The notes below the pieces were generated by a model. The model saw only the letters and a list, made by a program, of their open reading frames with translations, had not been told where the DNA came from and did no database searches. From Christensenellales bacterium (lineage in GTDB: Bacteria; Bacillota; Clostridia; Christensenellales; CALWSW01): a stretch of DNA of 64,000 nucleotides. This document shows, in pieces, positions 8,122 to 26,639 of this stretch (position 1 is the stretch's first letter; each line of letters starts with the position of its first letter). The DNA lies in assembly GCA_050945915.1 (NCBI GenBank), contig JBMNTV010000002.1, forward strand, positions 4,599-68,598, in the 5' to 3' direction. The translations under genes were made by a program, and so were the position numbers.

Positions 8122-8167
8122 TGGAGCTGATGAGCAGATTCGAACTGCCTACCTCCTCATTACCAAT
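8122..8167 (-). repeat. 46-bp direct repeat (att junction): orphan copy of tRNA-Thr positions 31-76
   Basis: tggagctgatgagcagattcgaactgcctacctcctcattaccaat is identical base-for-base to 24790-24835. Flanking bases differ on both sides. Confidence 0.9.
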
Positions 8168-8272
8168 AATGATGCTTTTCAACTCCACGATTTCCCCTTT
8201 ATCTGGATAAGCCAAGTATAACTTGTGCTCGGCTTGCGAGTCCAGATATTGGGGCGTAACTTATGCGGTTTT

Positions 8273-9211
8273 CTACCGGTCGGTCAGAAACGCGGTGAGC
8301 TTGCCGGTCTGCCCCTTGTGGTGGGACAGGCGTAAATGGGTGTAGATGTCCAGCGTGATCTGGATGCTGGAATGGCCCGCCCACACCTGGGCTGTTTTGA
8401 CATCAACCCCTGCTTCGTACAGCAGGGTGATATAGGTGTGCCGCAATTGCTTGGACGTAATCTTTGTGCCCAAGCCTTTTATTGCGTTCTTCCAATACGT
8501 TCGGAAGGATGTGAGTGACATAAGCCCTCCGCGGTGGTTCGGAAAAACATAGTCCGAAGTGCGGATGCAATACAGTTTGTTGAGCAAGCTGTGCAAATTC
8601 GGTTCCGCGATCGGTACGGTGCGTATCCCCGCTTCGCTTTTGGGAGGTTTGATCATACCTTGGTTGGTTACATAAGAGACGGATTTTGTTACGTGGATCT
8701 TGCGGGACTCAAAACAAATATCGTCCCAAGTGAGGGCAAGCCCCTCACCGCGTCGCAAACCGGTGTAGAGGTAGAGTAACATCAACGGGTCAGCCAGGGC
8801 ATCAATTTGACGAATTGCTTCATCGCCAAGAATGATAGGCTTATTCTTTGAGATTCTGGGCAACCGGATTTTTAATGCCGGGTTGCGGTCTAAAAACTCA
8901 TTGATGTACCCAAACTCCAATATCTGTGAAAGTCGTCCAACATAGTACTGAATGGACGAGGGCGCACACCCTTCTGCAATCAGTTGAGAAACAAACCAAT
9001 CGATGTGGTACGGCTTAATAAGCCGCACGTCACGCTCTCCGAAGCGCGGGATGATGTGACGGTTTATTTCGTACATGTAATTTTGAAGGGTTTTTTGCGT
9101 TATGTAACATCCTTGAACTGTTTTCCACAATTCAGTCAGCATTGAGAGCGTAACGATTTCGCCGTTGGTCAATGCTGTTTCGACCTTTTTAAGTATCGCT
9201 GTATCCATCAT
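8273..9211 (-). CDS. Tyrosine-type site-specific recombinase/integrase
   Basis: Carries the catalytic signature YTGLRRGE ... LRHTYITLL ... AGHSSIQITLDIYTH (R, H-x-x-R, H, Y). ATG 9211 is preferred over the TTG at 9223. Confidence 0.9.
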   Translation of the reverse strand: MMDTAILKKVETALTNGEIVTLSMLTELWKTVQGCYITQKTLQNYMYEINRHIIPRFGERDVRLIKPYHIDWFVSQLIAEGCAPSSIQYYVGRLSQILEFGYINEFLDRNPALKIRLPRISKNKPIILGDEAIRQIDALADPLMLLYLYTGLRRGEGLALTWDDICFESRKIHVTKSVSYVTNQGMIKPPKSEAGIRTVPIAEPNLHSLLNKLYCIRTSDYVFPNHRGGLMSLTSFRTYWKNAIKGLGTKITSKQLRHTYITLLYEAGVDVKTAQVWAGHSSIQITLDIYTHLRLSHHKGQTGKLTAFLTDR

Positions 9212-9425
9212 ATATATCCCCAATCTGTTAAATTGTTGTCAGAGTAATATGACGGATTGTTCCGATTTACACAGTTAGTTGTGCATATTGTCCGTTGAGT
9301 GGGTGACGCACTGCTTTGCTGTTTTGACTCGATATGTCGGACTCACGACGACGTTAAGCGCTTTCGCCGAGTTTGGTAACGCTGTTTGCTTTCAGCAATA
9401 TTCTGTTTTCAAGGTGCTTATCAAG

Positions 9426-9448
9426 GTACATGTATAAGATACATGTAC
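9426..9448. repeat. Perfect inverted repeat gtacatgtat-aag-atacatgtac upstream of the integrase
   Basis: 10-bp arms with a 3-bp spacer, seen directly in the sequence about 215 bp upstream of the int start. Function unknown; it could be an operator. Confidence 0.6.
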
Positions 9449-9617
9449 AGTAACAAGCTGTCAAATTTTTAGTCAAAAACGTGTTTTTGTATGATTTTCG
9501 CAATATTTTTCAAATTTTTACTTGTCTAATATCAAAATCTGTTACCAAGAGGTATACCCTGGCGGATAAAATGTGGCTGGATAGCGTGAAACAAAGAAAC
9601 TGATAAATCAGCCTGGC

Positions 9618-9786
9618 AACTTCGTCCCAAGTTGGGACGAAGTTGCAGAAGATGTCTCGGGCAAAAAGCTGAAAAATCAACTTGGGACACTTCGTCCCAA
9701 GTTGGGACGAAGTCGCGGAGCGGTTGATCGAACGAATAAGCTAATAAATTGGTCTGGGTCACTTCGGCCCAACTTGGGCCGAAGTG
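9618..9786. promoter_or_regulatory. Array of three palindromic parS-like sites
   Basis: The sites are 9618-9644 aacttcgtcccaaGttgggacgaagtt, 9689-9713 acttcgtcccaaGttgggacgaagt, and the variant 9760-9786 cacttcggcccaaCttgggccgaagtg. An extra half-site aacttgggac lies at 9679-9688. The same core recurs inside parB. Confidence 0.6.
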
Positions 9787-10017
9787 TTAGGCCGATTGTC
9801 TTGACGGAAATTCGTGCAACTACATTTTAAATTTTCTAGAAATATGAATCCACAGAAGTACGTTGACAGGAAATACGCGGCAATCGATATATTGGAGAAT
9901 TTACTTATTCGTATTATAAGATGTTATCACCGCTATGCTGTTGGCAAGCTTGGAGAAAGGAAACAACGATGACTGATTAACATTGAGAAATTTGGCAACA
10001 TTGAAGCGTTCTGACAG

Positions 10018-10420
10018 TTGGTCCAAAAGTACACAGGCTATCAGAATAGCGACGATCGTCCGCTTTCCGAACTTGCCGCGCATATCCTTATCACCGCCCT
10101 GTTACAGACAATGCCAGCTTCTACCCTGCGAGGCTTGGAGCGGTTCATTTCCGACTCCAACAAGCTATCAGCTTGTTCATGGCATACTCAAACAATATTT
10201 CAAAGAGATTGCTGAGAACGTCATTAAAGTTGAGGACATCATCAATGTTATCGATAACCGCCGTAAGCTGCACAAGGTAACAAAGTCCAAATCCGTGTTC
10301 CCTACAGACGATAGCCTGCTGAAAATGCTGTATCTGGCTATGGTGGACATCACGAGAAAATGGACCGGGCTTGGAGCGTCATCCACGCACAAATGCCGTT
10401 TCTTCGCCGAGCGCATGCCT
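10018..10420 (+). pseudogene. IS256-family (mutator-type) transposase remnant, multiply frameshifted
   Basis: Frame fragments read ...AAHILITALL...LRGLERFI...LSACSWH and ...NRRKLHKVTKSKSVFPTDDSLLKMLYLAMVDITRKWTG / AWSVIHAQ / FFAERMPG. They resemble the C-terminal half of IS256-type transposases but are split over three frames. Confidence 0.5.
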
Positions 10421-10737
10421 GGTTAACACCACAGGCGACGGACGTCAATGGTAAACGAGCGGCTGCGCCGCCCTTGACATCCGCCCCCCCGCTGGGCGTT
10501 GTGTTGCTAACAAGGCGGCAACGAACCAGTCCGCTGCCGCCTTTCAAAATTTTGCTCCGTTTTGCACCCTCGTTTGCAGTTTACACAGAATACGGGATAC
10601 ACCCTAACGACACAGGGCAAGGTCCAACCTTGCCCCTAATTACTAAATGAGATTATTTTGATTTTGAAGAATACACAAAATTTCCAACGCGACGCACAGT
10701 ATATGGGATTGACCCATTTCTGGTCTAGCGAATGATA

Positions 10738-11445
10738 TTAAAACGTGTATTTCGAATAAAGTTCTTCGAAAATAGGTAGATCATCAACAATCTGGAAAGT
10801 GTTGCTTGCACTGACCAAATCAGCTCCTGCAGCAAAAGCACCCATCAAAATTGCCGTCGTCCAGTATTTGCCGTTGCCGGAAGCCTTGAGCCCCATGCCA
10901 AGCTCGTCCGCCTTCTTGCGCAACATCTGAATTCTATGCATCGGTGCGCCTACCTTATTATAGTCATAAGCCTTAATGTGCGTCGCGCCGCCCTCTTTAA
11001 TCGCATCACACATGCGGAACATGTCATCCAAAGAATCGTTACACATAGTGAGAACTTTGATCTCGCCGTCGAAGCTTCCTTTTACAGCACGGACATACTC
11101 TGTAATGAGATCCCATCTGCGCATGGTCCATGCGGACATGTCGGGGTATACATCGATGGAACGGCAGCCTCCTTTGTACGCGATTTCCGCCTGCTTAGCG
11201 GCGGCGGCAGCGGGCATAAGGCCATCTTTAAAGTTGATCGGTGTAGACATAATAACGCCCGAACCATCCAGAAGGTCATGCACAAAACCGTGCCAATGAT
11301 GGCTGGGGGAGAAGATTACACGAAATCCGTACTCAATGCCCTTCGTAACTTGGTCGGTAATTATTTTTTCATCATTGTCCCAAATGACATGTTCCAAGCG
11401 GCTTGCCAGCCATTTTTTGGTTACCAATTCCCCGTTGAGATACAT
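10738..11445 (-). CDS. DeoC-like aldolase-family protein (divergent paralog of the 2-589 gene)
   Basis: 235 aa. Shares GG..(I/V)K, K.SG.G.(Y/F)WT(T/S)AI and the C-terminal I(V/I)DDLPIFEE motif with the aldolase at 2-589. GGAGG RBS precedes ATG 11445. Confidence 0.7.
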   Translation of the reverse strand: MYLNGELVTKKWLASRLEHVIWDNDEKIITDQVTKGIEYGFRVIFSPSHHWHGFVHDLLDGSGVIMSTPINFKDGLMPAAAAAKQAEIAYKGGCRSIDVYPDMSAWTMRRWDLITEYVRAVKGSFDGEIKVLTMCNDSLDDMFRMCDAIKEGGATHIKAYDYNKVGAPMHRIQMLRKKADELGMGLKASGNGKYWTTAILMGAFAAGADLVSASNTFQIVDDLPIFEELYSKYTF

Positions 11446-11697
11446 AATGTTTCCTCCTTCTATATTTAGAAAAGCTGATATGATAGAGTTAAAGATGCTA
11501 TTATGCTCACCATCTCTATGTGCAAGACTATATCACAACAAACCTGTATAGTCAATACTGCAATACGTGTTATACAACTAAGTTTTGACATAGTGCCGTG
11601 CAAAGATAAGAGTGTTGAGATGGTGAAATAAGAAATATGCAAATAAACCCATCGATGTGGCGAGACGGACCATCGCAGACGAGTATGGAGAAGAAAT

Positions 11698-11808
11698 GGT
11701 CTGCCCAAGTCTTTGTACCTGATTGGTAAGCTTTCGCAGTATCCGTTCTCCCGAGGACTGCCCGGCTCAATATAACCCGGCTTAATAATAAATAGTAAGT
11801 TTGCTCAC
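11698..11808 (-). pseudogene. Short remnant of an rve (DDE integrase-core) transposase gene, copy A
   Basis: The minus-strand frame reads YIEPGSPRENGYCES, the P..NG..E segment that carries the catalytic Glu of rve transposases. It is joined directly to ...KDLGRP. Nucleotide-level repeat of 15388-15790. Confidence 0.5.
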
Positions 11809-12005
11809 CTTTTCTGCCTGGCTTTTTCCGTTGCCTCATTGACTTTTTGTTTACGGGCTTAAGGATTCGGCTGGGTGCTCTGGATTTTCCGGGGCGCCCG
11901 GCTTGTATTTTGTATGACGTCCCGCACAACCTTTCACAAGCTCCATGCGCGTTGACCGATGTTGTCATACATGATAAGATTAATAAACATAAGATTTGAA
12001 GGAGC

Positions 12006-12743
12006 ATGCAAATGGCGACAAGAAACCGTTCGATCAGCACAGCAATGGAAGTTTCCCTGCGGGAACGCATTCAAAACGGCGAGTGGGCAGTGGATTGCGC
12101 CGTGCCTTCGGAAAACGAGCTCGCTCGGCAATATTCCGTCAGCCGCATGACTGCCCGCTCGGTGCTCACCCAGCTGGTCGGGGCCGGGTTGTTATACCGC
12201 ATTCCGGGCAAGGGCACATTTGTGGCTCAGGAGCCCACCCTCGTGCTGCGGGATAGGGCGTTTTGCTCCATCCGGGAGCAGCTTACCAAACAGGGGCACA
12301 ACGTTAGTACCCAGTTGCTCAGTATGGGAGAAATCGCTGCTACCGAATCTGTGGCAAAGAAGCTAGATCTGCATGAGAGTGCGCCCGTGTTGCAAGTGCA
12401 TAAACTACGTTTTCTGGAAAGCAAGCCTATCAGCCTACACACAAGCTTCTTTCCTCTTTCTCGTTGCCCCGGGCTCCAGCAATATGATTTTGTGGAGCGA
12501 GACAGCTGTGTTGTTATCGAGGAGCATTACGGTATCAAGCGCGCCCGGGTCAAGGAAACGCTGGAATCCACACTTGCCACGTTCCAGGAAGCGTCCAAGC
12601 TAGGCATTCTGCCTGGCCACCCGTTGCTTCTGCTGGATAGCGTGGTCTATTCAACCGAAAAGTATCCCTATGAATATGCCAAAGTAGTGTATCGGGGAGA
12701 TATGATCAAGATTTCCTTTGATTATGAGGACGACATTCGCTAG
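12006..12743 (+). CDS. GntR/HutC-family transcriptional regulator (winged HTH + UTRA effector domain)
   Basis: Contains PSENELARQYSVSRMTARSVLTQLVGAGLLYRIPGKGTFV, the GntR HTH signature. The C-terminal approx 150 aa are UTRA-like. The alternative ATG at 12012 is better spaced from AAGGAG (11999-12004). Confidence 0.88.
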   Translation: MQMATRNRSISTAMEVSLRERIQNGEWAVDCAVPSENELARQYSVSRMTARSVLTQLVGAGLLYRIPGKGTFVAQEPTLVLRDRAFCSIREQLTKQGHNVSTQLLSMGEIAATESVAKKLDLHESAPVLQVHKLRFLESKPISLHTSFFPLSRCPGLQQYDFVERDSCVVIEEHYGIKRARVKETLESTLATFQEASKLGILPGHPLLLLDSVVYSTEKYPYEYAKVVYRGDMIKISFDYEDDIR

Positions 12744-13070
12744 GTGTATAACAAAATAGTCCGGTAGATTTAATTATACGTACCGTAGATCGTGAAACGG
12801 CATCAGATGGACATATCCCGCCATCGGGGATAAGGCCATCTTTTGCGTTCTCAGGATGCATGATAACGCCCCTATAAAAGCGGCACAAAAACGCGATGGA
12901 TAAGTTATAGTGAGAACATAAATGACGTGTGCAAATCCCCGGCCGAAAGCCATGAGATGCGGTCGCACTCCAGGCAAACGGGAATTCTGGAGATTGGCAG
13001 AACCGGTACCTCTACCTGATGTAGGGTTACACATAATTTGGAATAGCCTCGCAATTTACTCTACACGCAA

Positions 13071-13105
13071 AGAAGAACGCTTCGGATAACCCGAAGCGTT
13101 CTTCT
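13071..13105. terminator. Strong 15-bp-stem hairpin between convergent gntR-type and flavoenzyme genes
   Basis: agaagaacgcttcgg / ataac / ccgaagcgttcttct, a perfect stem. It lies between stop 12743 (+) and stop 13120 (-). Confidence 0.6.
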
Positions 13106-13119
13106 CATTTTGATTCGTA

Positions 13120-15039
13120 TTATGCGTAATACCCCATGCGGAAGCCCGCCGCGACGTTGGTGCGGATGTTGCCCTGCTCCAGCGCGTCGCCGCAACACAC
13201 GGCGTTAATTCCCTTTTCTTCCAGCGCCTGTTGCAACGCGCCGCCCGCCGGGCGCTGGCCGGTGGCAAGAACGATCAAATCGGCCTTGGCGCGCTGGGCC
13301 ACGCCTTGGGAATCGACGTAGTTAACGCCGTCCGGTTCGATGGAAGAAACCCGTGCGCTCACTTGCAGATTGGAGCCGGATTCTTTCAAAATAGCCAGAT
13401 CGCGTTCACGGTGAGTGGCTTCCTGCCCGGCAGAAAGCACTGGGGCCATTTCGATGATGGTGATGCGGTTGCCATGTTCCAGCAAGTATAGCGCCGCTTC
13501 ACAGCCCACGTTGCCGCCGCCGATCACCACCACATCCTTTGCTTTTGGCGTGGGAACGGTTCCGTCCAGCACATCCCATACCCCGACGGTGTGTTCCACG
13601 CCAGGCAGGGGCGGCGTTGCGGGAACCGCGCCCACAGCCACGATCACCTTGTCCGGCGCCAGTGCGGCGACGGAATCTACCGTGGCTTCTGTGTTCAACA
13701 ACACCTTCACCCCCAGCAGTTCAAACTGCCGTTCGAAGTATTCCGCCGTGGTGTTCAGGATTTCCTTGTCCGGCGGCACGCTGGCAATGTTCATCTGCCC
13801 GCCCAGGAAGCCCTTCTTCTCGATCAGGGTGACTTTGTGGCCGCGTTCCGCAGCGGTTTGGGCGGCCTGCATGCCCGCCACGCCACCGCCGACCACCACG
13901 ATGTTCTTGGGCGCGCGCACGGTGGGCAGGTTGCCTTCGTCATAAACGGCGTCAAACCCGACGTAGGGGTTCAGCGCGCAGCGGATGCCACTTTTTTTGC
14001 CCAGCATAGCGTAGCAGCCTTCCAGGCAGTTGATGCAGCGGCGGATTTCGTTTTCTTTGCCGGTGCGCAGTTTTTCCGGGAAGTACGGGTCACAGATCAA
14101 CTGCCGCCCGACGACGATCAGGTCGGCTTCGTTATTTTCCAGTATTTCTTCGCACATCTCTCCCGTGCGGATTTTACCTACGATGGCAACGGGCTTTTTG
14201 ACCACAGGCTTGATCTTTGCCACAAGGGGCCGCCGTGCGCCGTCCGGGCGATCCTGGGTTTCGGTAGCGCCGAACCAGCGGTCTTTGATGCCGGTGGTCA
14301 CGTTGATCATGTCTACCAGCGGATCGGCCAGTTTTGCATATTCTGCGCCCATGTCAATGTCGATTCCGCCGGGGGCCCAATCCTGCACCGCAAGGCGCAC
14401 GCTCAAAAGAAACCCTTCCCCACAGGCGGCACGGACTGCGGAGAGCACTTCGCCCAGGAAGCGGAAGCGGTTTTCCACATCGCCGCCATATTCGTCTGTG
14501 CGGTGATTGGTCAGCGGAGAAAGGAACTGGTTGACCAGATATCCGTGTCCCGCATGAATTTCCACGCCATCCAGCCCGGCCTGTTGGGCCCGGCGGGCAG
14601 CAGCGACGTACTTCTTCACAAGCTGGTCAATTTCTTCTTTTGTGAGGGCGGCATATCCCTTGCCTGCATCTGGCGCGACGGCCACCGACCCTGGCGAGGA
14701 AACGGACCGGGACCCGGCGTGGTGCAGTTGAGCCAGAATCTTGGTACCATAAGGCTTGACGCTGTCGGCAATAGCGTGCAAGCCGGGGATGTCGGTGTCT
14801 TTGGAAAGATCGAGCTGCACGACGGAGCCCATGCCGTGGGGCTGGTCTACCGAGCCGAACTCCAGAATGATCATACCCACGCCCCCTTCGGCGCGCTTAG
14901 CGTAATATGACCGCAGGGTTTCCGTCACGGTACCGTCCGCGTTGCAAAAAAGCGTGTCCATGGCGGGCATCACCAGTCGGTTTTTCAGCACGGTGCGGCC
15001 CACCCGAATGGGGGAAAACAGGTTTTTGTATTGTGTCAT
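13120..15039 (-). CDS. Old-Yellow-Enzyme-family FMN oxidoreductase fused to an FAD/NAD(P)-binding domain (2,4-dienoyl-CoA-reductase/enoate-reductase-like)
   Basis: 639 aa from MTQYKNLFSPIRVG. N-terminal OYE TIM barrel (VMPAMDT, HAGHGYLVNQFLSP). Cys cluster RRCINCLEGC...IRC. C-terminal VVVGGGVAGM and VVIGGGNVGCE dinucleotide folds. GGAGGA RBS precedes ATG 15039. Confidence 0.88.
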   Translation of the reverse strand: MTQYKNLFSPIRVGRTVLKNRLVMPAMDTLFCNADGTVTETLRSYYAKRAEGGVGMIILEFGSVDQPHGMGSVVQLDLSKDTDIPGLHAIADSVKPYGTKILAQLHHAGSRSVSSPGSVAVAPDAGKGYAALTKEEIDQLVKKYVAAARRAQQAGLDGVEIHAGHGYLVNQFLSPLTNHRTDEYGGDVENRFRFLGEVLSAVRAACGEGFLLSVRLAVQDWAPGGIDIDMGAEYAKLADPLVDMINVTTGIKDRWFGATETQDRPDGARRPLVAKIKPVVKKPVAIVGKIRTGEMCEEILENNEADLIVVGRQLICDPYFPEKLRTGKENEIRRCINCLEGCYAMLGKKSGIRCALNPYVGFDAVYDEGNLPTVRAPKNIVVVGGGVAGMQAAQTAAERGHKVTLIEKKGFLGGQMNIASVPPDKEILNTTAEYFERQFELLGVKVLLNTEATVDSVAALAPDKVIVAVGAVPATPPLPGVEHTVGVWDVLDGTVPTPKAKDVVVIGGGNVGCEAALYLLEHGNRITIIEMAPVLSAGQEATHRERDLAILKESGSNLQVSARVSSIEPDGVNYVDSQGVAQRAKADLIVLATGQRPAGGALQQALEEKGINAVCCGDALEQGNIRTNVAAGFRMGYYA

Positions 15040-16387: not shown

Positions 16388-17947
16388 ATGGCAAACCAAT
16401 ATGTTGTTGGAATCGATGCAGGTACTACCGGTTGCCGGACAGTCATCTTTGATCTGCAGGGCAACGAGATCGGCTCGGGGTATCGGGAGAACCCGTTGAT
16501 CTATCCGCAAGCCGGATGGGTTGAACTTGGAGTCCAGGATATCATCGACAACTGCTACGCATCGACGCGCGAAGCACTGACGAAGACCGGAATCGACCCC
16601 AAAGAGATTGCGTCGATCAGCTTCACCTATATGCGCCCTGTGGTCTGTCTGCGCGGAGAGGACGGAAGCTGGGTCCGTGATATTCAGATGTGGCAGGATA
16701 TGCGTGCCGCACAGGTGTTCCCCTGGATGACCCAGAGGCTCGCTGAGTTTGGCATGACGCCGGACGACCTGTATGATATCACCGGGTTCCCATATTCGAC
16801 TGTGTGGATGTTGGGCAAAATCTGCTGGATACAGCAGAATGAACCTGATGTTTGGGCGCGCGTCAAGCACATCCACAACCTTCACGGTGTCCTCGTGCAT
16901 GCGTATGGCTGCGAGGAGTGGCTCGAGAACAGCGAGGATCTCGGCTGGTGGCAGCTTAACAACTGCGATGACTTCACTTGGAACGAAAAGCTCTGCAAGG
17001 TCTTTCAGGTCGACCCCTCAATGCTTCCCAAGCATGTGCCCACCGGCACAGTCATAGGCGCCGTTTCGCGTGAGGTCGCCCAGAAGACCGGCTTGGCCGA
17101 GGGCACCCCGCTGGTCGCGGGCCTCGGTGACCAGCAGTGCGCCGCAGTCGGCATGGGCAATATCCGTGAAGGAATGGCCTCGCTCGTACTCGGGACCGCC
17201 GGCGTATTGGTCTGCCAGTCCGAGAAGCCGGTTCGTGACCCGAACCGCAAAGCACACGTTATTGGATCCGCTCTCCATAAATGGGAGATGGAGGGCCATT
17301 CAAGCGCCGCGGCGAGCTCCTTCAAGTGGATCCGCCAGACGTTTGGTCACATGGAGCAGGCCACTTCTGGCCTGACAGGCATCGACGTCAACGACCTGCT
17401 GACCGCGCAGGCGGCGAAGGCGAAGCCGGGAGCTCAGGGTCTGGTTTACATCCCGTGGCTCGCGGGTGCGGCCATGCCCTACTATGACACGAATGCGCGC
17501 GGTGCGTTTATCGGTATGACCTTTGGCCACCGCAAGTGCGAGATCTTGCGTGCCGGCATGGAAGGCGTCTGTTGTGAGATGCGCACTATGCTTGAGGCAA
17601 TCCAAAACGCTGGAGTCGCGCCATCCGAATACATCCGCATCGGTGGTGGCGCAGCTCGCTCGTCGCTGTGGAACCAGATCAGTGCGGACGTCTACGGTGT
17701 GCCGGTTGAGACGGTCAAGACACCCGAGAGCACTGCGCTCGGCGCGGCGATGATGGGCGCCATCGGCGTCGGCATCTTCAAAGACCTTAAGGAGGCGAGC
17801 GAAGCGATGGTCCATGTGACTGGCCGCTGGGAACCCATCCCCCAAAACGTTGAGGTCTACAACGAAATCTACCAGATATTCTTGAATTCTTACACCGCAC
17901 TGAAAGAGCAAGTATTCCCTGCTATCGCGAGGTTCCAGGGAGTCTAA
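16388..17947 (+). CDS. FGGY-family carbohydrate kinase (paralog of 863-2428)
   Basis: 519 aa. Contains VVGIDAGTTGCRTVIFD, GDQQCAAVG and GGGAARS. It aligns along its full length with the kinase at 863-2428. Confidence 0.9.
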   Translation: MANQYVVGIDAGTTGCRTVIFDLQGNEIGSGYRENPLIYPQAGWVELGVQDIIDNCYASTREALTKTGIDPKEIASISFTYMRPVVCLRGEDGSWVRDIQMWQDMRAAQVFPWMTQRLAEFGMTPDDLYDITGFPYSTVWMLGKICWIQQNEPDVWARVKHIHNLHGVLVHAYGCEEWLENSEDLGWWQLNNCDDFTWNEKLCKVFQVDPSMLPKHVPTGTVIGAVSREVAQKTGLAEGTPLVAGLGDQQCAAVGMGNIREGMASLVLGTAGVLVCQSEKPVRDPNRKAHVIGSALHKWEMEGHSSAAASSFKWIRQTFGHMEQATSGLTGIDVNDLLTAQAAKAKPGAQGLVYIPWLAGAAMPYYDTNARGAFIGMTFGHRKCEILRAGMEGVCCEMRTMLEAIQNAGVAPSEYIRIGGGAARSSLWNQISADVYGVPVETVKTPESTALGAAMMGAIGVGIFKDLKEASEAMVHVTGRWEPIPQNVEVYNEIYQIFLNSYTALKEQVFPAIARFQGV

Positions 17948-18235
17948 TGGAATACAAATCAATAAATTAGATACAAGAGCATATAGGGAGGGTCGGTTGC
18001 CAAACCTTTAAGCAACTGACCTTTCCGAAGCTTGTGATTACATACATGAAAGAAAGGACACCTAATAGCTCTAGACTTATTGATAATATGAACTGCAGAT
18101 AAAGGTGTTCTGAATCGTCAATGAGCTACCTTTGTTTTAAGAAGTGTTCAAAAAACTATATATAGCACTGCAAGAGAACATCGAACTGGCTGAATCCAAA
18201 GCCGATTCAGGTTGGTTTATAAGGAGGACATCGTA

Positions 18236-18997
18236 ATGGAAAAGAAACGTTTGGAAGGCGAAGTAGCGGCGGTGACCGGCGCAGCGTCGGGCTTGGACCG
18301 TGGAATCGCAATAGAGTTAGCTAAAAATGGCGCAATCGTTGCCTGCTGCGATATTGATGATCAGGGAAATATGAAAACGGTAGATATGATCAAAGCAGCT
18401 GGCGGGCAAGCATTCCCTGTGAAAATGAATGTAGGTGATTCCGCGTCCGTCGATGCTGCTTTTAAAGAAATATTTGATAAGACCGGTAGGCTCGACATTC
18501 TGGTCAATGGCGCAGCTATCTCAAGAAAGCTGCAACTACCCGAATGTACCGATGAGGAATGGGACCTGGTTATAAGGATTAATCTAACTGGTGCGTTTTA
18601 CACCATTCGTGCAGCATATCCCTATTTCAAGAAAACCGGTGGTGGAAAGATCGTGAATATTTCCTCGACCTCAGGTAAAAGCGGAGGGAGTTGGTCGGGT
18701 GCTCATTATGTCGCGTCCAAGGCTGGGGTGATAGGATTGACAAGGTATTGCGCCGGCTATTTCTGCAAGGATAATATCCGGGCCAATGCCATTTGCCCCG
18801 GTGTCGCAGAGACCCCGCTTACTGCTGATACTACGCCTGCAGTCCTAGATAAAATGCTTCAAAACATTCCAATGTGCAGAATGGCAACGCCGGAAGATGT
18901 AGCGGGCGCTGTTTTATTCCTGGTCTCTGATGAAAGCAAATACATTACGGGCATAACAGTAGATGTCACCGGCGGCAGATATATATATAATAACTGA
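18236..18997 (+). CDS. Short-chain dehydrogenase/reductase (SDR)
   Basis: Has the TGAASGLDRGIA Rossmann motif, NGAA and the catalytic YVASKAG (Y-x3-K). AAGGAGG RBS precedes ATG 18236, so the track start at 18212 was rejected. Confidence 0.9.
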   Translation: MEKKRLEGEVAAVTGAASGLDRGIAIELAKNGAIVACCDIDDQGNMKTVDMIKAAGGQAFPVKMNVGDSASVDAAFKEIFDKTGRLDILVNGAAISRKLQLPECTDEEWDLVIRINLTGAFYTIRAAYPYFKKTGGGKIVNISSTSGKSGGSWSGAHYVASKAGVIGLTRYCAGYFCKDNIRANAICPGVAETPLTADTTPAVLDKMLQNIPMCRMATPEDVAGAVLFLVSDESKYITGITVDVTGGRYIYNN

Positions 18998-19111
18998 CAA
19001 TTGTTCAGAGTTCCCATGGAATGAGATACTGCTCCAGCCAATACGAATGAAAACAAAAAACAGGGCTGGGTGGGTCTGATGTGTCCCCACAAAGCTGGAC
19101 AAATGTTTGGA

Positions 19112-19335
19112 TTAAGCAACGGAAAGGGCTTGTTGCCTGTGAATGGCAGGCGGAGGCCCTTTAGCTTTGCTACGGAGGTTGTTGTAATAATCGAGATCGT
19201 CAATTGACTTCCGCTTGAAATGCTCCATTGAGTGCATGGATGACGCTCCAGTCCTGCCGCCGCCCGGTCCATTTTCACGTGATGCAGTTTTGAATTTCGG
19301 TCTGGGGGAATGCCGCCTCGATTGGTCGAAAACCC
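19112..19335 (-). pseudogene. IS3-family (IS150-like) transposase C-terminal remnant
   Basis: The minus-strand frame ends ...SMEHFKRKSIDDLDYYNNLRSKAKGPPPAIHRQQALSVA*. This resembles the conserved ...SMEHFK...YI.YYNN.R.K.KLKG.SP..YR... tail of IS3-family OrfB. It directly abuts the truncated ATPase gene. Confidence 0.5.
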
Positions 19336-19337
19336 GC

Positions 19338-19676
19338 TCAGATTGTCTGTTCAGGCGATGAAAATATCCTCAACCCCTTTGATTCCGGGGGCTCGTGTGA
19401 AAAGCAATTCTCACCGTCGCTGATCCCGGCCACAAACAAGCTCCGACCGCGTGGACAATCGGCAAACACTTCCCAGGGGACGGCTCCTTTTGCGATGTTG
19501 CCAATGCTTTTTTCGGCGGGTATGTCCACGCCGAAGTGCTTTGAAAGCGACGGGTATCGCCAATCGCAGGGCAGACAGGCGACGGCCTTGCCTTCCTGAG
19601 TCAACGTTGCCGCAAGGTTGGAGATCACCGTCGATTTGCCCGCCTTGGAACAGCCGGTGACAGCGATTATTGCCAT
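19338..19676 (-). pseudogene. Truncated MinD/ParA/CpaE-like P-loop ATPase fragment
   Basis: 112 aa, MAIIAVTGCSKAGKSTVISNLAATL, with a deviant Walker A. Homologs of this ATPase class are much longer. The ORF ends where the IS3-like remnant begins. Confidence 0.5.
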
Positions 19677-20485
19677 TCGATTTCACCGCCTTCCGGTAGT
19701 TCTTCGGGTTCGTCCTGCACCGTGTCGGCGAGGAACTTCTCCATTGCGGCGGTTTCCGCGTCCAGAATGGCTTGTTCCAACACGGGCAATTCCGCCGTGT
19801 TGAACTCCGTGAGCATTTCCAGGGCCGCAGCGTCGCGGCCGATCAACGCAACGTGGATGGTGGCCGTTGACTGGAGACGCACAAGCGTCGTCGCCTGGCG
19901 ATGTGTGGCGACCACCGTCACCGCAGCGGCGATTGTTGCGTCGGACGATTCCGCGTCCGTGGTGTCCTGCGCTTTTGCGTTTACCACGGACACGACCTCC
20001 ATGCAGCTTAGTTCCGGGGGCTGCATAATCAGCATGTCCCCGTCGCCGGGCTGGGCGGCGTAGATGCGGATCACGTCCCCGGTGGCCAGCTTGCCGGCAA
20101 CTCCTGCGGCAAGGCTGGGCACAGTGACAGAGATATTCATGCGATCCGCCCGGGTGATGATCGGGTCGGGGCCGAGCGCATCTGCCGTCGTAAACTTCGC
20201 CGCGGTCAGGTTATCGCTGGGGAGCAGCGGAACCGCAGCGTACAGGCCGATGCAGCTCTCCGGGGCCGTCAGCGTTCCGGTGGGCAGGGCGTATGCGCCG
20301 ATTTCTGCCGTAGTCAGCAGTTCCGGCGTGATCACCGTCCCTACGGGGACGATCTCGCGCACCCGCAGCACGGTTGCGGTTTCGCGGGTTTTGCTGTGCG
20401 CTTCGGGGACCAGCCAAAACGCGATTGCCGCCGCAAGCACCAGGCACGCGACGGCAATGAATATGCGGTTTTTCAGAATTCTCAA
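19667..20485 (-). CDS. cpaB: Flp/Tad pilus assembly protein CpaB/RcpC-like (N-terminal TM + SAF-like domain)
   Basis: 272 aa. Has an N-terminal TM helix (IFIAVACLVLAAAIAFWLV) and the VPVGTVITPELL ... GDVIRIYA pattern typical of CpaB. TTG start lies 6 nt after AGGAGGTGG and overlaps the upstream stop (TTGA). Confidence 0.75.
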   Translation of the reverse strand: MRILKNRIFIAVACLVLAAAIAFWLVPEAHSKTRETATVLRVREIVPVGTVITPELLTTAEIGAYALPTGTLTAPESCIGLYAAVPLLPSDNLTAAKFTTADALGPDPIITRADRMNISVTVPSLAAGVAGKLATGDVIRIYAAQPGDGDMLIMQPPELSCMEVVSVVNAKAQDTTDAESSDATIAAAVTVVATHRQATTLVRLQSTATIHVALIGRDAAALEMLTEFNTAELPVLEQAILDAETAAMEKFLADTVQDEPEELPEGGEIEWQ

Positions 20486-22026
20486 TCCGTTCCACCTCCT
20501 GTGTTGTCAAAAAGCGCGGCGCAGAAATTGTCGCGCTCGTGGGATTGTGCAAAAGGGTCGGCCAGAAAGGGCAGAGCGACTACCGTCTGGCCTTTTGCAA
20601 TGCGCCGCAGGGCCTGCTGGCTTTCCGGGGACAACCGGGCCAGCGCGATGGACATGCGCAGGCCATTTCCCTGGAACATCCGCAAAACGCTCTCGCAAGC
20701 GATCCAGCGCGTGCGTCCAGCGTCCGCGACAAATACCCGCACCGCCGCCCTGGTCAACTCGTCCAGCTTGGCCTGCTGCTGGGTGGGTAGCACTGCGCCA
20801 TCGTTCTGGCGCACGATTGCGCCTATGTCGGCGATGACGTAATCATAGCCGCCGCGCATGACTTCCGCGATGGTTTCGCCGCCGTAAAAAACATCCACCC
20901 CGGCGTAGCTGTACGGCGTGTCCAGCGCGGGGCGGGGTGGAAGATAGCGGAGATCCGCTTCCCCCAGCAGTGCCGTGCGCAGGCCGTTATCCGCCAGCCA
21001 TGCGGCGATTGCCGCCGCTGTCCAGGTACATCCGCCCCCAGACATCGTCTGGAATACGGCCACCGTCTGGCAGCTGCTTGGCTTTGGCGGTTTGTATTTC
21101 TGAGGGGCAGGTTCGGCCTTGCCGCGCCCGTTCGACCGCCCGAATCCCTTCCGGGGTAAGCCCGATTCTTCCGGCTGGGGCTTGTCCGCAACGGATGCCT
21201 TCGGCGGCGCTTCGGGCGGCACCTCCGGGACGACTTTCAGCGGCATTCCCACAGGCGGCTCCGGTTCCGCAGCGGGTGCAGGGGCCTTTTTCGGCTTCCG
21301 GGGCGCGCTGGATTTTTTCGCGGGCTTTTTGCCCTGGGTCGGCGGTTCTTCCGGGGCTTCCGGTTCGGGCTGGTTTCCCAACTCAGGCAGGGCTTCCGGC
21401 CCGGGCGACGCTGGTTCGTTCGGGGTTGACGGAAGCACCAGATTTTCTGGTTCCGGTTGTGGTTCCGGCTCCTGCGCCGCCGCCGATTCCATCGGGCTTT
21501 CCGGCTCTGGCAAGGGGGATGGTTCTTCGGCTACAAAGGCAGAGGGCTGCACATCTTCCGGCGCTTCGGTTGACGGCTCGGCAGGGCCGATGCCCGGCGA
21601 GTCGATCACAGATACTTCGACACCACTGGTGTCGAAGTCGCAAGCCGGTTGTTCGGACGGCTCCACCGCCGCAAGCGCATCCAGCAATTCGTCCACCAAA
21701 GCGCGACTGTCGGTGACCAGCGCGGCCACCAGGGAATCCCGGATCAGCTTTTTCACACCGTCATCGGCTGCATCTGATTTCGAGCCGATCACGATCACCG
21801 GCATGGGTTTACGTTTTTGCACTTCGCGGAAAAATCTGCGCCGCCCGAAGTTGTCGGCCACGCTCATGTGCAGGATCAGGCAATCGGCGGCGCTTGCCGC
21901 CAGCATGTCCAACAGCGCGCCGGGGTCGGGAACATCCTCCCCGCAAAGGCGCACGCCGTGCCCAGTGAGCGCCGTCCGGATCGCAGCCGGAACCAGCGCC
22001 GTGAGGACGGCGGGATACTCGGTCAT
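20482..22026 (-). CDS. TadZ/CpaE-like protein: receiver-like N-domain, approx 200-aa Pro/Glu-rich linker, degenerate P-loop ATPase-like C-domain
   Basis: 514 aa with a GGAGGA RBS. The C-domain VAVFQTMSGGGCTWTAAAIAAWLADNG sits where MinD/ParA proteins have KGGxGKT. The middle region is EPEPQPEPE/PKKAPAP-rich. Confidence 0.6.
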   Translation of the reverse strand: MTEYPAVLTALVPAAIRTALTGHGVRLCGEDVPDPGALLDMLAASAADCLILHMSVADNFGRRRFFREVQKRKPMPVIVIGSKSDAADDGVKKLIRDSLVAALVTDSRALVDELLDALAAVEPSEQPACDFDTSGVEVSVIDSPGIGPAEPSTEAPEDVQPSAFVAEEPSPLPEPESPMESAAAQEPEPQPEPENLVLPSTPNEPASPGPEALPELGNQPEPEAPEEPPTQGKKPAKKSSAPRKPKKAPAPAAEPEPPVGMPLKVVPEVPPEAPPKASVADKPQPEESGLPRKGFGRSNGRGKAEPAPQKYKPPKPSSCQTVAVFQTMSGGGCTWTAAAIAAWLADNGLRTALLGEADLRYLPPRPALDTPYSYAGVDVFYGGETIAEVMRGGYDYVIADIGAIVRQNDGAVLPTQQQAKLDELTRAAVRVFVADAGRTRWIACESVLRMFQGNGLRMSIALARLSPESQQALRRIAKGQTVVALPFLADPFAQSHERDNFCAALFDNTGGGTD

Positions 22027-22271
22027 TTTATTCCTCCTCTCGCAAACGGCTTTTTGCCGCAGTTTGGAAATTTACCGGCTGAAAAAAAGACTGGCCGCAG
22101 AAGGAGCGTTGTGCTTCTTTCCGGGCCAGGGTATTACGTACTAAGCTTAGCTTATATTTCTTTCAGCTGGTTATCTTTTAAGAGAAACGATAGGGTAGCA
22201 GAGAGATGTATACTTGTCAAATTACTTGCCAAAACCGCGTTTTGCATGATTTTTGGGCTTTTTGCTAATTT

Positions 22272-22583
22272 TCACTCGTCCTCATCTTCGATCATTTCGT
22301 TCATTTCATAGCCTGTTTCTTGCAGCCTTTGCGGTACAGGCCAGACAATGCGGCTCAAGTCGCGTCCAACTTCAAGCAAAAAGGACGGCTCTTTGCCTTC
22401 GGATACGTCCTTTCGAACAGCTTCGAACGAAATCGCGCCTTCGCGCAGGGTGTACAGGAGGATGCTTTTGAAAATATCGGGCGGCATTTCGCTCCAGTTG
22501 TCCGGCATATACTTGGCGATCGGACTCAATTCGATGGTGAGTCGGTTGTTCGGGATGTCGATCACGGTTTTGATTTCGGCCAT
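22272..22583 (-). CDS. Hypothetical small protein with acidic C-terminus (EMNEMIEDEDE)
   Basis: 103 aa. AAGGAG RBS precedes the ATG, which starts 12 nt after the parB stop. No family recognised. Confidence 0.65.
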   Translation of the reverse strand: MAEIKTVIDIPNNRLTIELSPIAKYMPDNWSEMPPDIFKSILLYTLREGAISFEAVRKDVSEGKEPSFLLEVGRDLSRIVWPVPQRLQETGYEMNEMIEDEDE

Positions 22584-22595
22584 AGTCGGCTCCTT

Positions 22596-23756
22596 TCATT
22601 CTCTTTCAAGGTCATTCTTCGAGTGGCGGCTATTTTGACGGGACTCTATCTGCTTGTTTTTGCCAAGCATTCGCTGGGCAAACGCGCACAAAAGTCCATC
22701 CAGTTCGAGTATGATTTGCTCATCTGAGTAATCCTTGCTGGCGGGCTTGATGATGGCGAGCCGTTCCCGCACGCGCTTGTTGTCTATCTCAAGCATCTTT
22801 TTTCGCTTCTTGGGTTCCTCAGATTTTTGGACAAAAAAGAAATCGTCCAGGTATGCTTCTGTTATTCCCCCTGCCACACTTTGTCTTTTCAACGCCTCCG
22901 CTTCTTTTAATTTAGGCTTTACGCCCTGTTCGCGCATGAAATCCAGCAGCATCGCCTGTTCATCTCTTTCGAGGTAGGACAAGGCCACAGCGGTGTTTGT
23001 TGGTATTTTATTGCCGTCAACCATTTCAAGGAATTCTGAGATCAGATAAGAAAGCCGGATGTACCTATGAATTTGAGTTTTACTTGTCCCGGTAGCTGCA
23101 GCCAATTCGTCATCTGATCGCCCAGTTTGGAAACTCGTCCCAAGTTGGGACGAGTTTTCTTGCAACAACCCCTCAGAATAATCCGTCCCAAGTTGGGACG
23201 AGTTATTTTTGGAGGGCCTACCACTTTTACGCTTCATTGCATCCAATCGCATTCTATATGCCACAGCTAATTCGCTCGGCATCATTTTTTGCCGATGCAG
23301 AAGATTCGCCTCTGTCATCATAATGTCTGCGGTGGCATCGTCTACATACCGGATGGATGCGGAGATCATGGCAGGTTCTGGACTGTCGCCTTGGATTAGC
23401 CGCATTGCCGCCGCGCGGTTGTGGCCGGATATGATCTCATACTTGCCTTCCTCTGTTGGATGCGGTCGCACAAGAATTGGTTCTAGTACGCCGCATTCGC
23501 GTATACTGTCCGCAAGTTCAACCAGTTCTGCATTGGGACGCAGTTTAAAAGCATGTCGCGCATATGGTATCAGGTCTTTGATGTACAGGTCGGTGCGTTC
23601 TTCGAGTCCGCGCCCGTTGGTCGGGCGCGATATCTCTCTAATATAATTGCTCTCGGAACGCCGAGCAGAGGTATTTTTTGGATCAATAAGCGGACTTGTT
23701 TGGAGATCTCTTAACTCCTGCAGACGCTGATCAATTCTTTTGCTGTGTGCTGACAT
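22596..23756 (-). CDS. parB: ParB/Spo0J-family partition protein (ParB N-terminal domain + HTH)
   Basis: Contains ELADSIRECGVLEPILVRP...YEIISGHNRAAA (ParB box) and an HTH at LAAATGTSKTQIHRYIRL. GAGGTGG RBS lies 8 nt before ATG 23756. Confidence 0.88.
   Translation of the reverse strand: MSAHSKRIDQRLQELRDLQTSPLIDPKNTSARRSESNYIREISRPTNGRGLEERTDLYIKDLIPYARHAFKLRPNAELVELADSIRECGVLEPILVRPHPTEEGKYEIISGHNRAAAMRLIQGDSPEPAMISASIRYVDDATADIMMTEANLLHRQKMMPSELAVAYRMRLDAMKRKSGRPSKNNSSQLGTDYSEGLLQENSSQLGTSFQTGRSDDELAAATGTSKTQIHRYIRLSYLISEFLEMVDGNKIPTNTAVALSYLERDEQAMLLDFMREQGVKPKLKEAEALKRQSVAGGITEAYLDDFFFVQKSEEPKKRKKMLEIDNKRVRERLAIIKPASKDYSDEQIILELDGLLCAFAQRMLGKNKQIESRQNSRHSKNDLERE
23131..23200. promoter_or_regulatory. 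Two parS-like palindromes embedded in the parB coding sequence
   Basis: The sites are 23131-23157 aaactcgtcccaaGttgggacgagttt and 23184-23200 cgtcccaaGttgggacg. The core matches the 9618-9786 array. They encode the repeated peptide (N)SSQLGT. Confidence 0.6.
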
Positions 23757-23815
23757 ATTGGTTTCCACCTCTTACTTATATATTTGCCCACATTGACAAT
23801 GCCAACAAAGATGCA

Positions 23816-24642
23816 TCATAAGGCGGTCATGCTTGCAATCTTCTCCTTAGGTGTATGGAACTTTTTGATCAGTTCTGCGGAAAAAGCGCGATAGGCATCC
23901 GAAACCGTCTTTGCCTTTTTTAATTCAAGAACGCTCTGTCCCCACAGGGCACTTTCTTCTGCTCGAACTGATCGTGGTATTTGCGTCTGAAACACGCCAA
24001 TGCTGTCACCGTGTTCTTTACGAATCTCTTTGACAACATGTTTAGTATGATTGTTTCGCATGTCCGTCATATTCATTAGAACGCCAGAGATTTGCAAAGA
24101 ACTATTCACGGACTCCTGTATCTCGTTGATGTTACCAATGAGAGTGCGCATGCCCAGGATCGAATAATACTGCGCCTGGGTTGGAATGATGGCATGAGTC
24201 GCAGTTGTCAATGCGTTGGCGGTCAGCATGCCTAGGGTGGGCGGACAGTCAATTAAAATATAATCGTAACTACCATGCAAATGCTTGAGCACGCGATGCA
24301 GCACATACTCCCGGGCGTATTTTGCGTTGATCTGGTTGTCACACGTGGATAAGTTGATGTTGGCTGGGATATAATTCAGGTTTTCGCTGTGGTTAACGAT
24401 ACCCGCCTGAATGTCAAAAGCAGCGCCTGAGAGCGCTGCTTCCAAATAGTTGATATGGTTAATTTTAAGTCATCCGGCTTCGGGCAACCCAACCCGTGGG
24501 TCATGCTTGCCTGGGGGTCCATGTCCACCAGCAGCACGGTGTTGCCTTGCTCCGCGAGCGCGGCCCCGAGGTTGATTGTGACAGTTGTCTTGCCTACGCC
24601 ACCTTTTTGATTGACAATAGCGATTGTTTTTGTATTTTTCAT
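23816..24642 (-). pseudogene. parA: ParA/Soj-family partition ATPase, interrupted by a frameshift near 24444-24446
   Basis: The N-terminal part [20 protein letters not shown]...DMDPQ is in one frame (24642 downwards). The rest, [10 protein letters not shown]...LIDCPPTLG..., is in another (to 23816). Changing the A3 run at 24444-24446 by 1 nt would give the continuous reading ...KLTISTILEAALSG.... AAGGAG RBS is present. Confidence 0.8.
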
Positions 24643-24789
24643 TTGAAGATCTCCTTGTTTGTAAACGAGACACAACTTATGCCCAATGACTATGGCCCCT
24701 AAACCGGGGATAAGAAAGGCCCTATCGTAACTGCAGTTACAATAGGGCTGTATCCGTGTATGACGTGAAAATCGATCATACAACAACTG

Positions 24790-24835
24790 TGGAGCTGATG
24801 AGCAGATTCGAACTGCCTACCTCCTCATTACCAAT
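24790..24835 (-). repeat. 46-bp direct repeat (att junction) forming the 3' part of the intact tRNA-Thr
   Basis: Identical to 8122-8167. Confidence 0.9.
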
Positions 24836-26629: not shown

Positions 26630-26639
26630 GGCTCCTCCC

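Follow-up and report, generated by a model that had tools for sequence, protein, structure and literature searches.

Introduction

Elements such as ICEclc and PAPI-1 are integrated in tRNA-Gly or tRNA-Lys genes and carry Soj/ParA and ParB genes near one end and the integrase gene at the other, and PAPI-1 also carries a type IVb pilus. Pilus loci of the tad/flp type have reportedly spread horizontally, and are said to constitute a 'widespread colonization island'. In Bacillus subtilis, a parS site is located inside spo0J, the parB gene. Here we analyzed a stretch of 64,000 bp from a Christensenellales bacterium (contig JBMNTV010000002.1 of assembly GCA_050945915.1, positions 4,599 to 68,598), hereafter the window, in which a first-pass annotation had noticed a mosaic region flanked by a tRNA-derived repeat. 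We conclude that region 8168-24789 is very probably a degenerate tyrosine-integrase genomic island located at the tRNA-Thr(GGU) gene of this metagenome-assembled genome (MAG). What is odd about the island is mainly that its body is flipped relative to its three known relatives; otherwise it is ordinary and decayed.

Results

The island occupies a tRNA-Thr(GGU) gene that is empty in a relative

The region is bordered by TGGAGCTGATGAGCAGATTCGAACTGCCTACCTCCTCATTACCAAT, an exact 46-bp direct repeat (100% identity) present within the 64-kb window at 8122-8167 and 24790-24835, the positions being to the base those given in the first-pass annotation. The two copies enclose 16,622 bp, and an exact 46-mer occurring twice in 64 kb cannot be due to chance. 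The one tRNA gene that ARAGORN called across the 64 kb is a minus-strand tRNA-Thr(GGU) at 24790-24865, which scored 71.5 bits with Rfam; an Rfam scan of 7800-25200 revealed no second tRNA, and across the island no Rfam families besides tRNA were found. Since the only tRNA is at the right copy, the repeat corresponds to tRNA positions 31-76, from the anticodon loop to the 3′ end, and the left copy lies outside any gene. As had been proposed, the right copy therefore forms the 3′ part of an intact 76-nt tRNA-Thr gene, on which ARAGORN and Rfam agree, and the left copy is an orphan: it lacks a tRNA 5′ half and is directly followed, on the minus strand, by a terminator-like hairpin (hairpin and T-run, 8122 to 8097). 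We also considered that the left repeat might belong to a second functional tRNA gene, a finding that would have spoken against the insertion, and this was ruled out by the single tRNA called by ARAGORN and Rfam. The window repeat analysis did not reveal a third or degenerate internal copy of the 46-bp core. The features at the insertion site are as follows.

8097-8122, minus strand: native intrinsic terminator of tRNA-Thr (11-pair hairpin and T-run, with an equivalent in L031), now parted from its gene by the island
8122-8167, minus strand: orphan copy of tRNA-Thr positions 31-76, predicted attR core and original chromosomal 3′ part (exact repeat, no tRNA called)
24710-24789, unstranded: element-borne hairpin (palindrome at 24719-24748) and ~40-bp arm adjoining the tRNA, conserved in L083, L084 and L091
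24790-24865, minus strand: intact tRNA-Thr(GGU), 76 nt (ARAGORN, Rfam), positions 31-76 of which (24790-24835) are the predicted element-derived attL core

The hairpin at 24719-24748 probably now terminates the tRNA transcript.

We searched for an empty site by comparing LigD, encoded in the left flank, with species-representative genomes, which yielded 80 loci. Only one of these (L031, from the Christensenellales MAG SBF912SR1HQ0054; LigD 78% identical to that of the window) has a tRNA-Thr(GGU) gene after ligD in the same position and orientation as in the window. The order in L031 is ligD, ~320 bp ending in a hairpin and T-run, an identical 76-nt tRNA, a conserved upstream region and an ABC-like gene, whose product is 75% identical to the ABC-like membrane protein encoded at 25043-26659 in the window. 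Contiguity of ligD, terminator, tRNA-Thr and ABC-like gene is what an empty site was expected to look like, and the L031 locus, an unoccupied attB, supports the insertion. Since the hairpin and T-run in L031 directly follow the intact tRNA, the terminator beside the orphan copy is the native one. The 76-nt tRNA sequence is also identical in L083, a third locus described below. The empty site, the identical tRNA and the conserved flanks support the view put forward in the first-pass annotation that the element inserted and thereby regenerated the 3′ part of tRNA-Thr, a reaction that would have been mediated by the integrase.

A Christensenellales bacterium MAG (locus tags ACOYIR_006xx) is the recorded source of every island protein and of Ku and LigD from the flank. 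The left flank and the island are reproduced by Logan assemblies of two runs (SRR31066156 and SRR31061295), whose contigs are identical to the window except for one mismatch in L002. As expected for assemblies with k=31, these contigs end inside the 46-bp repeat, where integrated and excised forms are indistinguishable.

The island differs in composition from its flanks

A check by windowed GC content and k-mers, which the first-pass annotation had suggested, revealed that the island departs from its flanks: its GC content is 52.1%, that of the flanks 59.4% and 57.4%. Measured by tetranucleotides, the int, deoC-like and parAB blocks are at z=4-6.5 from the host profile and the OYE block at ~1. 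The composition of the island is foreign, though the OYE block is host-like. The GC contents of individual genes are 48.7% (int), 47.9% (deoC-like), 53.5% (gntR), 59.4% (OYE), 58.3% (FGGY), 47.6% (SDR), 62.8% (cpaB), 64.2% (514-aa ORF), 48.3% (parB) and 47.8% (parA). Int, aldolase, gntR, kinase, SDR and parAB had all been described as AT-richer blocks, which is correct for most of them; the kinase gene is GC-rich (58%) and gntR is intermediate.

The integrase belongs to a rare clade

The gene next to the orphan repeat, at a distance of 105 bp, encodes a tyrosine integrase.

8273-9223, minus strand: tyrosine integrase, intact 316-aa ORF (PF00589, E=9e-25; SAM-like N-terminal domains; phrog_1, E=3e-60)

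Relatives of the integrase are annotated at 310-315 aa. The nearest solved structures are those of Int 3nkh, the Tn1549 Int 6emy and XerD. In the alignment with 3nkh, the Arg of GLRRGE, the Arg of LRH(TY) and the His and Tyr of GHS...IYTH are opposite identical residues. Based on reading the same alignment, the beta-hairpin Lys would be that of KSEAGIR, and the K-for-H in KxxR would be located three residues before the LRH Arg. Only three close homologs of the integrase were found, in L084 (95% identical), L091 (82%) and L083 (69%), the next one being only 37% identical. The clade is rare and very thinly sampled.

In L083 (GCA_040769605.1, JAXGKT010000004.1, 1-10000), which comes from a different MAG, this same tRNA-Thr site is occupied by an island that is otherwise unrelated to the present one. 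It carries a flavocytochrome-like FAD_binding_2 gene, a relaxase fragment and P-type ATPase fragments, and lacks Ku/LigD; its genes are often fragmented, which may reflect assembly quality.

The body of the island is inverted relative to its relatives

In L083, int reads straight into a hairpin, an ~40-bp arm and the 3′ end of the intact tRNA-Thr gene, within the same neighbourhood as in the window (Fe-ADH, Amidase_6, ABC_tran_2). The same order (int, hairpin, arm and tRNA 3′ end) is found in L084 and L091. In the window, hairpin and arm remain beside the tRNA (24710-24789), but what comes before them is the 5′ end of parA, int being located at the opposite end on the other strand. The switch is evident from blastn, in which positions 1-1203 of L084 match the window from 9462 to 8260 and positions 1199-1310 match 24710-24823, the two matches overlapping by 5 bp (ATAAG). 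It defines two breakpoints.

8263-8274, unstranded: left inversion breakpoint, short inverted repeat CTTATgCGGTTT
24691-24709, unstranded: right inversion breakpoint, inverted repeat AAACCGgggATAAG at 24691-24704

The repeats at the breakpoints form an imperfect inverted pair of 12-14 bp (AAACCG..ATAAG). The most economical reading of this sequence arrangement is that the segment ~8263-24704 would have been inverted between two att-proximal stubs or, equivalently, that a stub-core-stub cassette of ~220 bp would have been flipped in a circular intermediate. While the layout is inverted relative to all three relatives, the direction and mechanism of the inversion are what we infer, the polarity following from parsimony (3-to-1). 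Misassembly was also considered as the source of the inverted layout and rejected: the junction lies in unique sequence and is identical in the assemblies of two runs. The earlier statement that int is located by the orphan copy and parAB by the tRNA is thus accurate for the present positions, but this is not the native layout, given the three relatives with int beside the tRNA.

Att-proximal stubs and integrase leader

Outside and upstream of the integrase gene, the following features were delineated.

8168-8262, unstranded: left att-proximal stub outside the inverted segment (L084 homology ends at 8260-8263); a putative P′ arm that may serve the integrase
9224-9464, minus strand: conserved int leader, ~200 nt, aligned to L083 (9690-9935) and L084 (1-254)
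9464 to 9436, minus strand: promoter-like site TTGACA-17-TATCTT upstream of int (promoter scan)

Over most of its length, conservation of the int leader with L083 and L084 is visibly above that of the rest of the alignment, the integrase protein of L083 being just 69% identical. The leader has no Rfam match. Its folding gave an MFE z of -2.95 (MFE, minimum free energy), and there is no covariation among the three sequences, so we do not claim a structured RNA. An exact 36-mer of the leader had no match in viral contigs or JGI metagenome contigs. A role of the leader as regulatory 5′ UTR or antisense target is conceivable.

Near both breakpoints there is a candidate arm-type repeat, CCAGATATTGGGGCGTAA (8245-8262) with CCATAGTCATTGGGCATAAG (24676-24695) as its counterpart, of ~19 bp and with ~12 of 20 positions matching. 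With the body turned back to its reconstructed ancestral orientation, they would form a pair of direct repeats beside attR, separated by 33 bp; they are candidate arm-type sites of the integrase. In addition, the tRNA 3′ end is repeated in inverted and degenerate form beside the orphan at ~8173-8192 (TGGAGTTGAAAAGCATCATT versus TGGAGCTGATGAGCAGATT, ~14 of 19 matches). This copy is located ~72 nt from the int-side ATAAG, and in the relatives the distance from ATAAG to the true tRNA end is ~73 nt. It may have arisen by chance, represent a core-type site or be left over from an earlier att.

A partition module with candidate parS sites

The tRNA-proximal end of the body encodes a partition module, parA/parB lying next to the tRNA as had been noted. 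Both of its genes were confirmed by domain hits; parA is frameshifted.

22272-22583, minus strand: small conserved ORF of 103 aa between parB and the tad block (called in Logan L085 and L086; a 122-aa ORF occupies the same place in L087)
22596-23768, minus strand: ParB-like (PF02195, PF17762; TIGR00180, PRTRC_parB)
23816-24642, minus strand: parA, a pseudogene through a frameshift near 24440 in a T-run (AAA_31 positions 1-62 and 68-177 in two frames)

The NCBI product of the ParB-like gene is 386 aa, starting at 23756, and the protein has few close relatives. The parA frameshift is identical in the Logan assemblies of two independent read sets.

A palindrome, GTCCCAAGTTGGGAC, occurs in five copies, all with extended arms and all inside the island; 0.17 copies would be expected by chance in 64 kb.

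9600-9790, unstranded: three palindromes ACTTCGTCCCAAGTTGGGACGAAGT (the third being the variant GGCCCAAGTTGGGCC) upstream of int at 9622, 9692 and 9764, spaced by 70 and 72 bp
23135-23153 and 23183-23201, unstranded: two copies of the same 19-bp palindrome inside parB

Symmetric variants are present in relatives: CGACCCAAGTTGGGTCG, twice within parB of L087; GGGCACAACTTGTGCCC, within the parB′ gene of L088; and ACTTCGACACCACTGGTGTCGAAGT, at the aligned position upstream of int in L083. Neither the palindrome of the window itself nor a second att copy (≤3 mismatches) was found in the 10-kb L083 locus. The symmetry is kept through variation among relatives, which argues for a functional dyad, and the palindromes are candidate parS or ParB-binding sites. 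Of the features of a ParABS system, the ParB domains and five palindromes are present and parA is frameshifted.

Another rearranged version of the element family is seen in L088 (1118-3039) and L089, from the run that contains the 95% identical integrase. There, a parB fragment (74% identical, without the N-terminal domain) is flanked by an FGGY_N fragment on one side and the gene for a Phd/YefM antitoxin on the other.

The tad block is ancestral backbone

Next to the partition module lies a GC-rich block with the remainder of a Tad/Flp pilus locus.

19338-19676, minus strand: truncated TadZ/CpaE-like P-loop gene, 112 aa (weak P-loop Pfam matches; the L090 homolog has 234 aa)
19667-20485, minus strand: CpaB/RcpC pilus assembly protein (PF16976, TIGR03177; 82% identical to the L090 homolog)
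20482-22026, minus strand: 514-aa protein, encoded by the first gene of the tad block in relatives (62-81% identical to 439-aa proteins of L087 and L090)

The 112-aa ORF is 86% identical to the 234-aa protein of L090 over 105 aligned residues. The alignment breaks off at residue 105, and divergence sets in a few residues earlier. The 514-aa protein matched nothing in Pfam, NCBIfam or PHROG. It has a conserved N-terminal part of ~120 residues, a highly variable linker of ~190 residues rich in Pro, Glu and Ala, and a C-terminal part of ~200 residues that is 81% identical to relatives. A homology search with this protein, which was swamped by the Pro-rich linker, gave one match, and a search of metagenome contigs with an alignment of its homologs retrieved no relative. 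In the tad-type loci of relatives, a gene of this type is always located directly before cpaB.

The gene order in L087 is ParA′, ParB (59% identical), a small ORF, a 439-aa protein homologous to the 514-aa ORF and the beginning of another gene, and the GC step of the window between parB and the tad block is repeated there. The 8.3-kb L090 encodes the 439-aa protein, CpaB, the 234-aa TadZ-like protein, TadA (T2SSE), TadB and TadC (T2SSF) and, further on, a 51-aa flp-like ORF, DUF4320 and more genes. Of the full set seen in L090, the window retains no more than cpaB, the gene for the 514-aa protein and 112 tadZ codons, and the operon is cut off beside an IS256-family remnant. The order and GC step of L087 and the full operon of L090 indicate that the tad block is ancestral backbone that was truncated in this island. 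This contradicts the earlier suggestion that the GC-rich cpaB/tadZ genes form a separate mosaic patch. Relatives of the integrase and of the parB/tad genes were twice obtained from the same run, SRR30752886 (L091 and L090) and SRR36201526 (L084 and L089), and this co-occurrence assigns both ends of the island to a single element family. A literature search on tad-carrying integrative elements at tRNA-Thr found nothing relevant.

IS remnants and metabolic cargo

Remnants of insertion sequences (IS) are located between int and the tad block.

9983-10470, plus strand: frameshifted C-terminal remnant of an IS256-family transposase, 3′ end towards the cargo (blastn, PHROG, weak Transposase_mut)
11700-11830, minus strand: IS3-family (rve) remnant, copy 1 (blastn to annotated IS3-family transposases; rve_3, E=5.7e-4, in masked translation)
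15700-15800, minus strand: IS3-like remnant, copy 2, 85% identical to copy 1 in direct orientation (SPRGNGYCE motif in frame -2)
19232-19320, minus strand: second IS256-family tail, inverted relative to the first, with an in-frame stop (inverted repeats; adjoins truncated tadZ)

In the first of these, 10274-10368 matches an annotated IS256-family transposase in blastn, and ORF 9983-10426 matches PHROG transposase families (E=3e-10) and, weakly, Transposase_mut (positions 330-377 of 379). IS3-like copy 2, for which there was no Pfam match, lies within a 1.24-kb stretch without an ORF of at least 70 aa. Neither distant blastn nor a Pfam scan of six masked frames gave a match in this ORF-free gap (15100-16400), leaving a third transposase type unsupported. 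Thus, instead of the at least three types claimed previously, two are supported, IS256 and IS3/rve. These remnants, the parA frameshift and the truncated tad operon bear out the decay that had been proposed.

Five intact metabolic genes are located between the two inverted IS256 tails. They are listed with their identity to the counterpart in L093 (see below).

10738-11445, minus strand: DeoC-like aldolase, 235 aa (TIGR00126 deoC, E=1.5e-13, below the family cut-off); 89%
12006-12743, plus strand: GntR/UTRA (HutC-type) regulator (PF07702, PF00392); 41%
13120-15144, minus strand: FadH/OYE-family flavoenzyme, NCBI product 639 aa (PF00724, E=2e-74; PF07992); 56%
16388-17947, plus strand: FGGY carbohydrate kinase (PF00370, PF02782); 50%
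18212-18997, plus strand: SDR oxidoreductase (PF13561, E=6e-63); 68%

With the BaiCD, bilirubin-reductase and mycofactocin-OYE models, the flavoenzyme does not reach the cut-off. The DeoC-like protein belongs to a cluster (at least 90% identity) together with proteins of Eubacterium sp. am_0171 and Anaerobium acetethylicum. In Lachnospiraceae, genes for OYE, SDR, a 79-aa ORF, DeoC-like, GntR, DUF7973, FGGY, transketolase and transaldolase form a single cluster. The cargo genes therefore belong together functionally, although their order is scrambled and their origins are mixed. The picture of a patchwork interior with an acquired metabolic cargo stands as far as the mosaic and the IS remnants are concerned, but the cargo is not random, all five genes being present in one Lachnospiraceae cluster. 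The two tails (~10274-10470 and 19232-19320) that bracket the cargo have only ~43-70 bp in common, and neither terminal inverted repeats nor target duplications turned up; the cargo might have been delivered as a composite transposon.

The Lachnospiraceae cluster is conserved in L092, L093 and L094 (~4600-16100; Eubacterium sp. am_0171 and related gut metagenome contigs). It is a candidate for an uncharacterized sugar-like catabolic pathway whose core genes are those of the island cargo. Just left of Ku/LigD, the chromosome has an operon of its own for DeoC, an FGGY kinase (863-2428) and Fe-ADH, with a LysR regulator (neighbours in L001, 4111-7944). The FGGY kinase of the cargo is 48% identical to this chromosomal paralog.

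The nature of the element

The locus combines direct repeats, a recombinase gene near one end, an empty site in a relative and a distinct composition, the features by which tRNA islands are recognized. It is heavily decayed and probably immobile at present. Several points weigh against this interpretation or parts of it. The empty site comes from a single comparator of another species (~75-78% protein identity), and neither a conspecific empty allele nor a circular form was seen. The ancestral left junction, consisting of the stub and the parA upstream region, is a reconstruction, the attR end of none of the relatives having been recovered, and an imperfect inverted repeat of 12-14 bp offers little length for homologous recombination. 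The short sequence shared by the IS256 tails makes a composite transposon a weak proposition, and delivery of the cargo in one event is unlikely given its GC contents (48-59%) and identities to Lachnospiraceae proteins (41-89%). Finally, the integrase and the att stubs look intact, so that immobility is not proven.

The first-pass annotation considered the island a decayed backbone of an integrative and conjugative element (ICE) or an integrative and mobilizable element (IME). This is a tentative alternative, according to which the lost part held a relaxase gene, an oriT and possibly a mating apparatus, and a tad-like machine or a helper served transfer. Large parts of the backbone have clearly been deleted; moreover, ParA/ParB by the att and a distal integrase resemble the layouts of ICEclc and PAPI-1, and the L083 island, with a related integrase at the same tRNA, contains a Relaxase (PF03432) fragment. 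However, the latter may be unrelated cargo, as L083 shares only int, leader and att arm with the island, and the 8.3 kb of L090 show tad genes only. Scans with Pfam, NCBIfam and PHROG detected no relaxase, coupling protein or type IV secretion system (T4SS) component in any sizeable island ORF. The set of relaxase, type IV coupling protein (T4CP) and T4SS that characterizes an ICE is consequently absent, as is the relaxase domain of an IME, and an oriT is not recognizable from the sequence; the label of ICE or IME fails on the present sequence.

It is improbable that the present layout is native, that is, that attP exists in two orientations or as a flippable ~220-bp cassette, such that the element inserts either way and the copy in the window would still be capable of normal excision. 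Flipping the 219-bp stub-core-stub segment of a circle has the same outcome as flipping the remainder, the integrase ORF, the conserved leader and both stubs are intact, and the short inverted repeat at the breakpoints could be a recombination site. Yet all three relatives have the other orientation, no second recombinase is encoded by the island, and the rest of the element is visibly decayed.

We consider it similarly doubtful that two independent elements were inserted in tandem at the tRNA, one with int and palindromes and the other with parAB and tad, with the cargo between them. The mosaic composition, the IS remnants between the modules and the fact that tRNA sites are known hot spots for serial insertion would fit such a history. 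Against it, the same 19-bp palindrome is present by int and in parB and nowhere else in the 64 kb, relatives of the integrase and of parB/tad co-occur in two unrelated runs, and there is no third or degenerate internal copy of the core.

A prophage or phage-plasmid remnant is most improbable: the integrase matches phrog_1, ParA/ParB match phage partition families and integration at a tRNA 3′ end is typical of temperate phages, but capsid, tail, terminase, portal, lysis and repressor genes are absent, PHROG matches are limited to the integrase, ParA, ParB, transposase and the GntR regulator (a function-unknown family), 50,697 phage records contain no nucleotide match, the int leader is unmatched in viral contigs, and the relatives carry a tad pilus operon instead. 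Nucleotide searches with the whole island against plasmids and phages retrieved the tRNA alone or nothing.

Discussion

Our preferred explanation, a decayed tyrosine-integrase island, implies the following history. A circular ancestral element would have carried an attP with 46 bp identical to the part of tRNA-Thr(GGU) from the anticodon loop to the 3′ end. Its backbone would have consisted of int, ParA/ParB with parS-like palindromes (three near int and two in parB) and a Tad/Flp operon. The tyrosine integrase would have recombined this attP with the chromosomal tRNA gene, the crossover presumably taking place near the anticodon loop. As a result, the tRNA would have kept its own 5′ part and taken the 3′ copy and hairpin of the element, and the original 3′ part and terminator would have been displaced by 16.6 kb. 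Later, the body (~8263-24704) would have been inverted relative to the stubs at the short inverted repeat AAACCG..ATAAG, IS256-family and IS3-family elements inserted and then decayed, the tad operon was cut after ~100 codons of tadZ, parA was frameshifted, and the five-gene catabolic set ended up between the two inverted IS256 tails.

A long shot is the far-reaching idea that int-parABS-tad elements of Christensenellales and other uncultured Clostridia constitute an undescribed, self-maintaining integrative family, in which a Tad pilus and not a T4SS would be the surface or transfer apparatus, the ~220-bp attP cassette with its AAACCG..ATAAG flanks would be switchable, and the leader would be an RNA regulating integration.

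The island provides a record of DNA acquisition, backed by an empty site, in an uncultured Christensenellales lineage. It identifies tRNA-Thr(GGU) as a hot spot used by a rare integrase clade, with two different islands at this site in two MAGs. It also illustrates that composition mosaics can mislead: the GC-rich tad genes are ancestral backbone, and a seemingly random cargo is the rearranged gene set of a Lachnospiraceae cluster. A body flipped between its att ends bears on tools that predict orientation and mobility of islands from the position of int. The current understanding of integrative elements is not changed by this island, and its mildly unusual features are only the inversion, the parS-like palindromes and the conserved int leader.

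Compared with ParABS systems that have parS in parB, the island shares palindromes located in parB and clustered elsewhere, and their symmetric change along with the ParB variant. It differs in that the site, TCGTCCCAAGTTGGGACGA, shows no relationship to canonical parS, parA is a pseudogene and binding of ParB is putative. With the tad 'widespread colonization island' it has in common the presence on mobile DNA, in its relatives, of cpaB, tadZ, tadA, tadB, tadC, flp-like and TadE-like/DUF4320 genes; here, however, the locus is linked to int and parABS, is located at a tRNA and retains only its first 2.5 genes. The window resembles ICEclc and PAPI-1 in having parA/parB at the tRNA end, a distal int and a pilus cluster in the backbone. 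Unlike these elements, it lacks relaxase, T4SS and T4CP, its truncated pilus genes are of the Tad/Flp type, its host belongs to the Clostridia, a Gram-positive lineage, and the native layout of its relatives has int beside the tRNA. Finally, it differs from tRNA-integrated islands (P4-like, pathogenicity and metabolic) by its sparsely sampled integrase clade, the long 46-bp identity block and a body inverted relative to the att stubs, and shares with them the tRNA 3′ repeat, the regenerated tRNA, int at one end, a deviant composition, IS remnants, an accessory metabolic cargo and an empty site in a relative.

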